Of a stretch of 43,956 nucleotides of DNA, positions 29,608 through 31,333 are shown piece after piece. The stretch's first letter is position 1. Each line of letters begins with the position of its first letter. Under the pieces are notes generated by a model, which saw only the letters and a list, made by a program, of their open reading frames with translations, was not told where the DNA came from and searched no databases. A program made the position numbers and the translations under genes. Source of the stretch: an uncultured Bacilli bacterium (GTDB lineage Bacteria; Bacillota_I; Bacilli_A; RF39; UBA660). The stretch spans positions 1-43,956 of the forward strand of contig CANQEQ010000001.1 in assembly GCA_947595345.1 (NCBI GenBank), given 5' to 3'.

Positions 29608-29865
29608 TTAATTTTTATCTTCTTCTTCAAGTTCATTAAATAACTCTTTAACATCAATTTCTAATACATCAGCAAATTTCCAAATCGTACCAAGACTAAA
29701 AGTTTGAAGATATTTTTTACTTTCAATATTCATGATAAAACCTTCACTGTAATTGCACAAATCAGCTAGTTGTCTTTGAGTTAAGTGCTTAAGTTTTCTT
29801 TGCTTTTTTAAGTTTTGTCCAACAAGATAATAAATATAATTTTCGTCTTTTTTATTGTCTATCAA
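29608..29865 (-). CDS. XRE-family HTH regulator, divergent from the helical-protein operon
   Basis: The segment VGQNLKKQRKLKHLTQRQLADLCNYSEGFIMNIESKK is a typical HTH_3 pattern. The protein is 85 aa. Confidence 0.8.
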   Translation of the reverse strand: MIDNKKDENYIYYLVGQNLKKQRKLKHLTQRQLADLCNYSEGFIMNIESKKYLQTFSLGTIWKFADVLEIDVKELFNELEEEDKN

Positions 29866-29982
29866 GCACTCACCTCACTTCATATTTATTGTCTCATGTA
29901 TTAACTTAAAAAAAGTTCATTTATTCAATGAGGTTTTTTAGGAAATTATTATGCTAAAATGGAATTAGAAAGGAGTATAGAG

Positions 29983-30324
29983 ATGGCTTTATCAAATGGT
30001 TCAATAAACAACGGACGTGCAAGAACAAAGGATATTCAAAAAGATTTAAACGAGGCAAGAAAACTTGTTGGAGATTTAAGAAATTATCTTAGTAATAATG
30101 AAAATTATGATAAATTTGTAAACGGAACTGATTTTGGAAAAAATCAAAACGATAAAATCCAAAAAATAATCGGACTTTTAGACCAAAACTTAACTGCTGA
30201 AACAACAAATTTAACAGCAAAATTAAATAGCTTTTTTAACCGACAAGAAGAGTTAAATCGTCGTGCTGCAGCTGCAGCTGCTGCTGCAAGAGCAGCAAGT
30301 GCTAATAGTCAAATCTCACGTTAG
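29983..30324 (+). CDS. Small helical protein A (113 aa from MALSNGS) with a C-terminal RR-A8-RAAS tail; paralog of 30693..30983
   Basis: SD aaggag lies 7 nt upstream of ATG 29983. The track start 29959 is unsupported. The central NYDKFVNGTDFGKN motif is shared with protein C (NYQVFVSGTQIGNE). Confidence 0.7.
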   Translation: MALSNGSINNGRARTKDIQKDLNEARKLVGDLRNYLSNNENYDKFVNGTDFGKNQNDKIQKIIGLLDQNLTAETTNLTAKLNSFFNRQEELNRRAAAAAAAARAASANSQISR

Positions 30325-30335
30325 GAAGGAATACT

Positions 30336-30674
30336 ATGAATAATTTTAATGCTAATGAGATAGCTGAGATTATTAATAAAATACAAGCTACTCAAAATGA
30401 CGTAGAACAAGCATTTACAAGAATTGGTAATAATTTTACTTCATTATCAGGAATAGTTGCCAGTGAAGACTCAAAATTATCAGGTACTTGTAATGGTATT
30501 AATAATACTTATAGAAATTTATCAGGAAAATTAACCCAAAGTTTAGATGCTGTAAAAACAGCATTAACAAATTATGCACAACAAACATTACAAAACGAAG
30601 CTCAAACGGCTCAAAATCTTACAGAAACTCAAGAAGGTTTGGAAAGTGCAAAAAGTGTTTTAGAAAGTCTATAA
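30336..30674 (+). CDS. Small helical protein B (112 aa); paralog of 30986..31333
   Basis: SD aggaagga is present. It shares SEDSKLSGTCNGI (D has SEDSNLANTCTNL), NYAQQTLQNEAQTAQNL (D has NYINETLVNESGATQSL) and the C-terminal LESAKSVLESL (D has LESINSALSSL). Confidence 0.7.
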   Translation: MNNFNANEIAEIINKIQATQNDVEQAFTRIGNNFTSLSGIVASEDSKLSGTCNGINNTYRNLSGKLTQSLDAVKTALTNYAQQTLQNEAQTAQNLTETQEGLESAKSVLESL

Positions 30675-30692
30675 AAAAGGAGGTAATAAATT

Positions 30693-30983
30693 ATGGCTTT
30701 AATAAATGAAAACATTGATAAATTAGATGAACAAATTAGTTTGATGCATGATGGTTTTAATGAGGTATCTTCAACTGTATCAGAAATGACATCTTTTTTT
30801 AACAATGATACAAACTATCAAGTATTTGTATCAGGAACTCAAATAGGAAACGAATTAAACGAAAAGTTGAAAAAACTAATAGAAATAGCTAAAAATTTGA
30901 ATGAAAACGAAGTTCAAAATCTTATTAAAATAACAACACAGTTTTCTCAACTTCAAAGAGATTTAAACAAAGGAGGTAATTAA
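30693..30983 (+). CDS. Small helical protein A' (96 aa)
   Basis: SD aaaggaggt is present. The sequence MALINENIDKLDEQ... is homologous to protein A along its whole length but lacks the poly-Ala tail. Confidence 0.7.
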   Translation: MALINENIDKLDEQISLMHDGFNEVSSTVSEMTSFFNNDTNYQVFVSGTQIGNELNEKLKKLIEIAKNLNENEVQNLIKITTQFSQLQRDLNKGGN

Positions 30984-30985
30984 AA

Positions 30986-31333
30986 ATGAATTTTAATGCA
31001 GAAGAATTAAAAAATACATCTAATCATATATATTTGTATTTTCTTGGAAGTGATGCCTCAATTGGGGTTAAACTTTCTTGGATACGACATGCATGTGAGA
31101 ATGCTAGTGATATTGTAAAATCAGAAGATTCAAATTTGGCAAATACTTGTACAAATTTAGCAACGACTTTTGACCAATTAGAAAATAAATTTATTGAAAT
31201 TGGTAATAGTTTACAAGAGAATTTTAATAATTATATTAATGAAACTCTTGTAAATGAAAGTGGTGCAACTCAATCTTTAGACGAGATAAATGGAAACTTA
31301 GAGTCAATAAATTCGGCTTTATCAAGTTTATAA
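30986..31333 (+). CDS. Small helical protein B' (115 aa)
   Basis: The SD aaaggaggt is embedded in the last codons of A'. The protein is homologous to protein B. Confidence 0.7.
   Translation: MNFNAEELKNTSNHIYLYFLGSDASIGVKLSWIRHACENASDIVKSEDSNLANTCTNLATTFDQLENKFIEIGNSLQENFNNYINETLVNESGATQSLDEINGNLESINSALSSL

Follow-up and report, generated by a model that had tools for sequence, protein, structure and literature searches.

What do four small proteins, encoded one directly behind the other between gyrA and the gene for the small signal recognition particle (SRP) RNA, do for an uncultured member of the Bacilli? The genes in question, A, B, A' and B', lie in a stretch of 43,956 nucleotides of contig CANQEQ010000001.1 (assembly GCA_947595345.1), which is referred to here as the window. 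A preliminary description of this DNA had been unable to place the two protein families that the cassette encodes, and they are indeed recognised by none of the Pfam, NCBIfam and PDB sequence searches; no public source names any member of family A or family B, and none of the 30 homologues found for family A carries a name. We consider it rather likely that A with B, and A' with B', are paralogous Esx-like hairpin heterodimers, which act as substrates or co-secreted partners of a type VIIb secretion system (T7SSb) and represent two unclassified families, the secretion system itself being encoded elsewhere in the genome.

The preliminary description had read the locus as four tightly coupled open reading frames (ORFs), each with its own Shine-Dalgarno (SD) sequence, in which two paralogous families alternate. 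Both statements hold: the genes lie where they had been placed (Table 1), the gaps between A and B, B and A', and A' and B' are 11, 18 and 2 nucleotides, respectively, and a GGAG-type SD sequence is present 5' of each gene. By BLASTP, A and A' are 30% identical (E=7e-11) and B and B' 32% identical (E=2e-13), and no similarity is detected between A and B or between A' and B'. Moreover, the profile-profile comparison of A with B gives a probability of 0.1%, thus ruling out that A and B are diverged copies of a single family.

The motifs quoted earlier for both families are genuine and are conserved in the orthologues. Family A is characterised by an N-terminal MAL, by NY..F..GT..G at the turn and by F...Q..LN near the C-terminus, which in A itself read NY..FV.GT..G and FF..QEELN, with a poly-Ala tail. 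The A orthologues also share an invariant F85-x-x-x-E89, of the same form as the FxxxD or YxxxD/E export motif (PMC10801868); A' is devoid of the second Phe and shows F84-x-x-x-Q88-x-[DE] instead. Family B has NFNA.E at the N-terminus, an invariant V.SEDS.L at the turn, Y...T...E and an L-rich C-terminal tail. The Cys of B and B' (SEDS.L..TC), on which the preliminary description had partly built its speculation about a secreted or assembling structure, turns out to be specific to this clade, as the wider B family has Trp at that position more often (~38 versus 25), and that argument is weakened.

The four-gene cassette is kept, with like order and sizes, in several lineages of uncultured gut Bacilli metagenome-assembled genomes (MAGs) from rabbit ('Lapin') and rumen (RUG591). 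In pairwise comparison of the window genes with four orthologous cassettes, the ratios of nonsynonymous to synonymous substitution rates (dN/dS) lie between 0.15 and 0.29 in A and between 0.23 and 0.39 in B, and they amount to 0.20-0.47 in A' and 0.33-0.81 in B'; thus all four genes are under purifying selection. Conservation of the ORFs in relatives, the lack of which had been named as a refutation, is in this way confirmed. The second pair evolves faster than the first, and B' fastest of all, which may point to diversifying selection on the duplicated pair or to a loosened constraint.

AlphaFold2 models of A and B, built with the family alignments, bear out the helical hairpins that had been surmised, and we are confident in the prediction that both proteins are helix-turn-helix hairpins of ~110 residues. 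The model of B (pLDDT 91.0) shows a helix from residue 6 to 41, a turn formed by the SEDS motif at residues 42-45, and a second helix from residue 46 to 111. The model of A (pLDDT 91.2) consists of helices 5-38, 40-48 and 50-111, in which the conserved NY..FV.GT block is located in the short connecting helix, within a turn region comprising residues 39-49. In both cases the second helix is far longer than the first (about 62-66 versus 34-36 residues), and no Sec signal is visible in the sequences of these proteins of ~100-115 residues. A Foldseek search of the PDB with the models ranked ESAT-6/CFP-10 first for B (E=0.22) and Staphylococcus aureus EsxA third to fourth for A (E~1). What the models show is a generic hairpin fold, which agrees with that of WXG100 proteins and is not diagnostic of it.

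At the family level there is a genomic link to type VII secretion, as cassette relatives are linked to EssC genes in two lineages, in one of them together with a DUF4176 gene. The preliminary description had reported that no EssC-type ATPase is encoded nearby, which is correct for the window and does not apply to the family, since EssC adjoins the family in L010/L015 and in L019. In the related loci L010, L011 and L015, the same-strand genes behind the cassette encode a 70-residue zinc-ribbon membrane protein, an 84-residue protein, EssC, a 199-residue protein, a DUF4176 protein (E=3e-27) and a protein of 2441 residues, whose N-terminus appears helical and LXG-like by eye. This EssC has 1536 residues, an FHA domain and two transmembrane (TM) segments, and it matches TIGR03928 with 1018.5 bits (cutoff 778.4). 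DUF4176 proteins are established T7SSb toxin-associated factors (PMC12482557). In the second lineage, L019, the order is a C-terminal EssC fragment (793 residues, 547 bits), an 84-residue protein, a 110-residue protein and a distant member of the B family. The 84-residue proteins beside the two EssC genes are homologous (42% identity), and the EssC proteins themselves are 42% identical, so that the two linkages are independent. Altogether, EssC lies within two genes of A or B in 2 of ~12 distinct contexts; taking one EssC per ~2000 genes, the chance of such an adjacency would be about 6e-4 as a rough estimate, and a coincidence is very unlikely.

The T7SSb locus of L010 (11632-20390) and L015 (11225-20339) looks pared down. 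Its zinc-ribbon protein has a TcaA-like N-terminus, and within +/-10 kb of the L010 EssC we recognised neither EsaA nor EssB nor a WXG100 protein; likewise, no canonical WXG100 gene was recognised on the L019 contig.

An exhaustive HMMER profile search shows that family B is large: at E<=1e-3 it comprises 311 representative clusters, 162 of which match at E<=1e-10 as well. Annotation of the fetched loci with hidden Markov models (HMMs) reveals that A-like and B-like genes are nearly always neighbours, also where they occur as distant single pairs (L018), in A-B-A-B arrays (L028 and L029) or in other combinations (L023 and L030). Two loci depart from this pattern, namely L019, where the partner is only weakly A-like, and L027, a short contig on which B alone was detected. 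Furthermore, ~30% of the listed B-family proteins (the top 150 representatives together with earlier matches) carry additional sequence. In 27 of them the B domain is N-terminal, and behind it come a hydrophobic stretch rich in Gly and Ala and repeats of the (T/V)KYAPP or VIYAPP type. Another 25 have an extension on the N-terminal side of the B domain, of at least 100 residues in ten cases, and in eight of the nine of these ten that were scanned YD/RHS repeats lead straight into the B domain. A-like genes stand directly beside the genes for fused B-domain cargo in L023 and L028-L030.

Several features of these fusions deserve mention on their own. Proteins P0100, P0111, P0112, P0130, P0160, P0161 and others, as well as the one encoded at L023 10001-10999, share a conserved Gly/Ala-rich segment 'GIGFGATAIAIPGL' after the B domain, together with tandem (T/V)KYAPP/VIYAPP proline-rich repeats, and no Pfam family was found in the seven of these extended proteins that were scanned; their architecture recalls the repetitive tails of PE_PGRS/PPE type. 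P0144, P0091, P0184, P0072 and the product of L030 1535-3301 are YD/RHS-repeat proteins of 320-590 residues with a C-terminal B domain, joined by a '...YTFNAxEL' junction and devoid of a classical Rhs C-terminal toxin; the L030 gene comes after two A-like genes and one B-like gene. Just upstream of an 87-residue gene and the A-like/B-fused pair of L023 lies a gene (5726-9391) for a soluble protein of 1221 residues, which was considered as a divergent EssC and rejected, as a Walker A motif, TM segments and Pfam matches are all absent from it.

We propose that each A hairpin would pair with the B protein of the adjacent, translationally coupled gene to give an antiparallel four-helix bundle, whose long second helices and conserved C-terminal tails (F..QEELN in A, L-rich in B) would be presented to the EssC ATPase. 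EssC would then export the folded A:B dimer, with no need of a Sec signal. The B hairpin of relatives would represent a portable targeting module, located at either end of a YD-repeat or proline-rich cargo, with an A-like partner gene adjacent. A helical module that may function at either terminus together with a small helical partner matches, by analogy, the published logic of T7 substrates such as LXG/Lap, TslA and LrhA, the latter being a T7SSb Rhs toxin (PMC10327511).

At the sequence level the relationship with known type VII proteins is faint. None of the four window proteins matches the WXG100 family (PF06013), even with the threshold relaxed to E<=10; apart from coiled-coil noise, the only match in the scan of Pfam and NCBIfam at that threshold was a weak one of B to a 'pore-forming ESAT-6 family' (E=0.028). 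The Lap1-4 families (DUF3130/TIGR04197, DUF3958, DUF5344 and DUF5082) are absent from the same scans. The window proteins have no Pfam match to the LXG domain (PF04740) and stand alone at ~112 residues. Matches in the PDB sequence and profile searches (coronavirus HR1, apolipoprotein-type coiled coils) were not significant and were dismissed as compositional. Four canonical WXG100 sequences, all confirmed as PF06013 by Pfam (best E=3e-26), served as a reference set. An HMM built from these four sequences matched, among 720 ORFs of the loci, only B-family ORFs (best E=0.0016); in a set of 196 family proteins, it recognised 21 at E<=1, the best of them with E=1.9e-6. It also placed the family Trp of the EssC-adjacent B protein of L019 on the W of WxG, with no Gly following. 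Distant B members gave sub-threshold Pfam matches to WXG100 (E=0.007-0.17), PE (0.005) and YwqH-like proteins (0.007), and two of them to LXG (PF04740; E=0.0013 and 0.0049, below the 26.5-bit cutoff). The Pfam matches are all sub-threshold, and thus sequence membership in the WXG100, LXG or Lap families is not established. The suggestion of WXG100/Esx pairs or Lap factors in the preliminary description therefore stands as regards a type VII link of the family, which the neighbourhoods of the homologues strengthen, and is not borne out as regards sequence homology, which is sub-threshold at best. The likeness to T7 small proteins is one of fold, gene organisation and genomic association.

Several observations weigh against T7SSb-exported heterodimers. 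In the Pfam and NCBIfam scans the four proteins gave no match at threshold and only coiled-coil noise at E<=10; hhalign comparison with the four WXG100 proteins gave probabilities of only 9.9% for A and 8.9% for B, and the 27% obtained with a B profile of Neff 7 came from an alignment that is out of register. No W-x-G is present at the hairpin turn, where B and B' have SEDS.L..TC and A and A' have NY..FV.GT. Nothing in the Foldseek search of the PDB reached E<=1e-3, all values being above 0.2, and Vipp1/PspA, chemoreceptors and de novo bundles scored on a par with the Esx proteins. Neither EssC nor any other T7SS gene is found within the 44-kb window, and in ~10 of the 12 contexts the cassette is an orphan amid housekeeping genes. 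Finally, no A-B fusion protein occurs among the 196 family proteins, and the C-terminal extensions of the fused B proteins are repetitive and not toxin-like.

Despite these points, the comparison with well-known systems is instructive. In S. aureus four small Esx proteins act as pairs, and Mycobacterium tuberculosis has many orphan esx pairs. With these WXG100/Esx proteins (ESAT-6/CFP-10; S. aureus EsxA-D) the cassette proteins share the helix-turn-helix hairpin of ~100 residues, the lack of a Sec signal, the neighbouring pair drawn from two subfamilies, the tandem duplication of pairs and a location that is often distant from the secretion locus, as well as a conserved motif at the turn (SEDS in B, WxG in WXG100) and family members adjoining EssC. 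They differ in the motif itself, in the Cys that B carries where its relatives have Trp, in the much longer second helix and in the fact that A and B are mutually unrelated at the profile level. The PE/PPE proteins of mycobacterial ESX systems (PE_PGRS, PPE_MPTR) offer a further parallel, being two unrelated helical families encoded as neighbouring pairs of which one member often carries long repeats of low complexity; this is an analogy only, as there is no significant sequence similarity and the comparison is made between Actinomycetota and Bacillota and between different secretion subtypes.

T7SSb systems have been described as universally secreting EsxA (PMC13355648). A bolder proposal, to which we give no more than tentative credence, is that A and B are unrecognised T7SSb substrate families which, in uncultured gut Bacilli, replace the canonical EsxA in a pared-down system composed of EssC, the 84-residue EsaB-like protein and the zinc-ribbon membrane protein, and that the B hairpin would work as a bidirectional export module, always with an A-type partner and with cargo such as YD-repeat shells or proline-rich KYAPP tails at either terminus, as a firmicute counterpart of the PE/PPE logic.

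The strongest rival, which we nevertheless judge unlikely, is that A and B are not substrates themselves and act as Lap-like targeting adaptors, which would attach to the helical domain of some large T7SS toxin from another locus, whose composite export signal they would form. Paired small helical partners are the rule for LXG toxins (PMC10801868, PMC10730906), and in LXG/Lap1-Lap4 and TslA/TlaA1/TlaA2 such partners are encoded next to the helical targeting domain, just as the A-like genes of L023 and L028-L030 adjoin fused B cargo. The targeting domain can moreover stand at either end of the cargo, TslA being a T7 substrate with the reverse arrangement and a C-terminal targeting domain (PMC10730906), and B domains likewise occur at both ends. 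The FxxxE of the A orthologues is similar in form to the FxxxD of Lap1 (PMC10801868), and the L010-type locus contains both the giant protein with its seemingly LXG-like N-terminus and DUF4176 (PMC12482557). However, no large cargo gene is adjacent in the window or in most other contexts, and the window has neither a toxin nor an immunity gene, the cassette being followed by the SRP RNA and tadA. In L010 itself EssC stands between the cassette and the giant gene, and it is DUF4176 and the 199-residue gene that take the usual adaptor position. None of the Lap models recognises A or B, and the fused B cargo, unlike LXG toxins, consists of YD repeats or KYAPP/VIYAPP proline-rich repeats with no recognisable toxin domain.

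A less probable rival still is a non-secreted assembly, cytoplasmic or membrane-associated, of the PspA/Vipp1/ESCRT-III type or a stress-related coiled-coil pair under XRE control, for which the EssC neighbourhoods would be coincidental. The Foldseek scores of Vipp1, PspA and Snf7, about equal to those of Esx proteins, are in line with such an assembly, as are the housekeeping neighbours lacking secretion genes in most contexts and the failure of every curated T7 family to match. Against it, chance is unlikely to have placed the genes twice, independently and on the same strand, at a distance of one or two genes from EssC, PspA and ESCRT-III proteins have about double the length and more helices, no Pfam PspA or Snf7 signal is seen, and the fusion of B to YD-repeat and proline-rich regions of extracellular type points to export. 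Export of an A:B heterodimer through a T7SSb remains the explanation that we prefer.

The cassette occurs in at least eight unrelated neighbourhoods, among them the gyrA/SRP RNA site of the window, and our genome scan yielded 3 species representatives only, all uncultured Bacilli or Clostridiales MAGs; the JGI scan yielded one locus. At the YitT...UvrA site of L001/L002 and L021 it is accompanied upstream by an Arc/Panacea toxin-antitoxin (TA) module or by a transposase. The former (L001 4607-5781, L002 6342-7516, minus strand) is a putative three-gene TA operon for an Arc-like protein of 45 residues, a SocA_Panacea-domain protein of 175 and an unannotated protein of 139, directly upstream of the cassette; in L021 a DDE transposase and an HTH_38 protein stand in its place. 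In L008, L012 and L017 the site is NAGPA/GH31, with a 144-residue double helix-turn-helix (HTH) XRE protein. In L025 (3888-6704) and L026 (2166-4810) the cassette is followed by a C39-peptidase ATP-binding cassette (ABC) exporter and ORFs of 140, 47 and 54 residues. This group resembles an export module of bacteriocin type, and its presence beside the cassette is probably independent; export of A and B by this route is unlikely. The upstream regulators of different lineages are not homologous to each other or to the XRE protein of the window, and thus there is no conserved dedicated regulator.

These many chromosomal sites beside unrelated regulators (XRE, Arc, HTH_38), the TA module, the transposase and the C39 exporter might suggest mobile or defence-type cargo, namely a TA, bacteriocin/immunity or ABC-exported peptide system under a local XRE or Arc repressor, a notion that we regard as very improbable, as neither A nor B has a tblastn match in collections of 72,556 plasmids and 50,697 phages or a TA family in the Pfam and NCBIfam scans (PADLOC and PHROGs were not among the libraries used), the sequences show no double-glycine leader, candidate substrates of 47 and 54 residues are encoded downstream of the L025 exporter itself, the Arc gene of L002 heads its own minus-strand operon, the GC content is not atypical, and four non-enzymatic hairpins in A-B-A-B order are unlike a TA pair.

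Table 1. Coordinates, in the window, of the cassette genes and of the features that surround them.
Feature	Position	Strand	Description	Basis or remark
A	29983-30324	+	113 aa, family A	ORF with SD sequence; alternative upstream ATG at 29959
B	30336-30674	+	112 aa, family B	ORF with SD sequence
A'	30693-30983	+	96 aa, paralogue of A	third cassette gene in relatives too
B'	30986-31333	+	115 aa, paralogue of B	fourth cassette gene in relatives too
XRE-family HTH regulator	29608-29865	-	85 aa, monocistronic, divergent from the cassette	Pfam HTH_3 E=2.9e-7, HTH_26 E=7.6e-6
Imperfect inverted repeat	29909-29939		candidate operator	arms AAAAAAGTTCATT / AATGAGGTTTTTT, 13 nt, 5-nt spacer, 85% complementary
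gyrA	26088-28733	+	flank on the XRE side	
Bacterial small SRP RNA	31390-31484		flank 3' of B'	Rfam 54 bits

In the window the gene string reads dnaA-dnaN-recF-gyrB-gyrA, then the insert, then SRP RNA-tadA-dnaX-recR, and the position between gyrA and the SRP RNA as well as the divergent XRE gene upstream agree with what had been described. The occurrence of the cassette in at least eight different neighbourhoods across lineages makes it plausible that it is an accessory insert; its GC content (0.25-0.28) is the same as that of the contig (0.27; 26.6%), so that composition shows no trace of recent transfer. From its position, the XRE protein is probably the repressor of the operon, acting through the inverted repeat that a repeat search located within the 117-nucleotide XRE-A intergenic region; this repeat is AT-rich and short and could be due to chance, and its role as an operator is putative. 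A scan for promoters and terminators gave none that exceeded shuffled expectation, and no terminator within the cassette.

Three further observations concern the surroundings of the cassette. An ORF of 152 residues with a TTG start (29122-29580, plus strand) takes up most of the space that separates gyrA from the XRE gene. It has no Pfam or NCBIfam match and no relative among the fetched loci, so that its status as a gene is doubtful, and the insert might include it. The NCBIfam match of the gyrA product begins at residue 51, behind a highly acidic N-terminal extension of ~50 residues, and its C-terminal tail is acidic too, both of which are unusual for GyrA. Between dnaN and recF lies an ORF of 150 residues (22369-22821, plus strand) with no NCBIfam match at E<=1e-5.

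T7SSb substrates have been found mainly by means of WXG100, LXG and Lap models, and current Pfam and NCBIfam miss both families described here. For the window itself the gain is modest, a testable functional assignment for four hypothetical proteins, and A and B are probably a new sequence variety of the well-known small helical proteins associated with T7SS rather than a new kind of system. Interest would grow if the B hairpin proved to be a bidirectional export module or a replacement of EsxA in a minimal T7SSb. Confirmation of the T7SSb link would add the poorly sampled Bacilli of the animal gut to the present catalogue of T7 substrates and targeting domains and would provide a second example of C-terminal ('reverse') targeting, and new HMMs could uncover T7 effectors that present annotation has missed.

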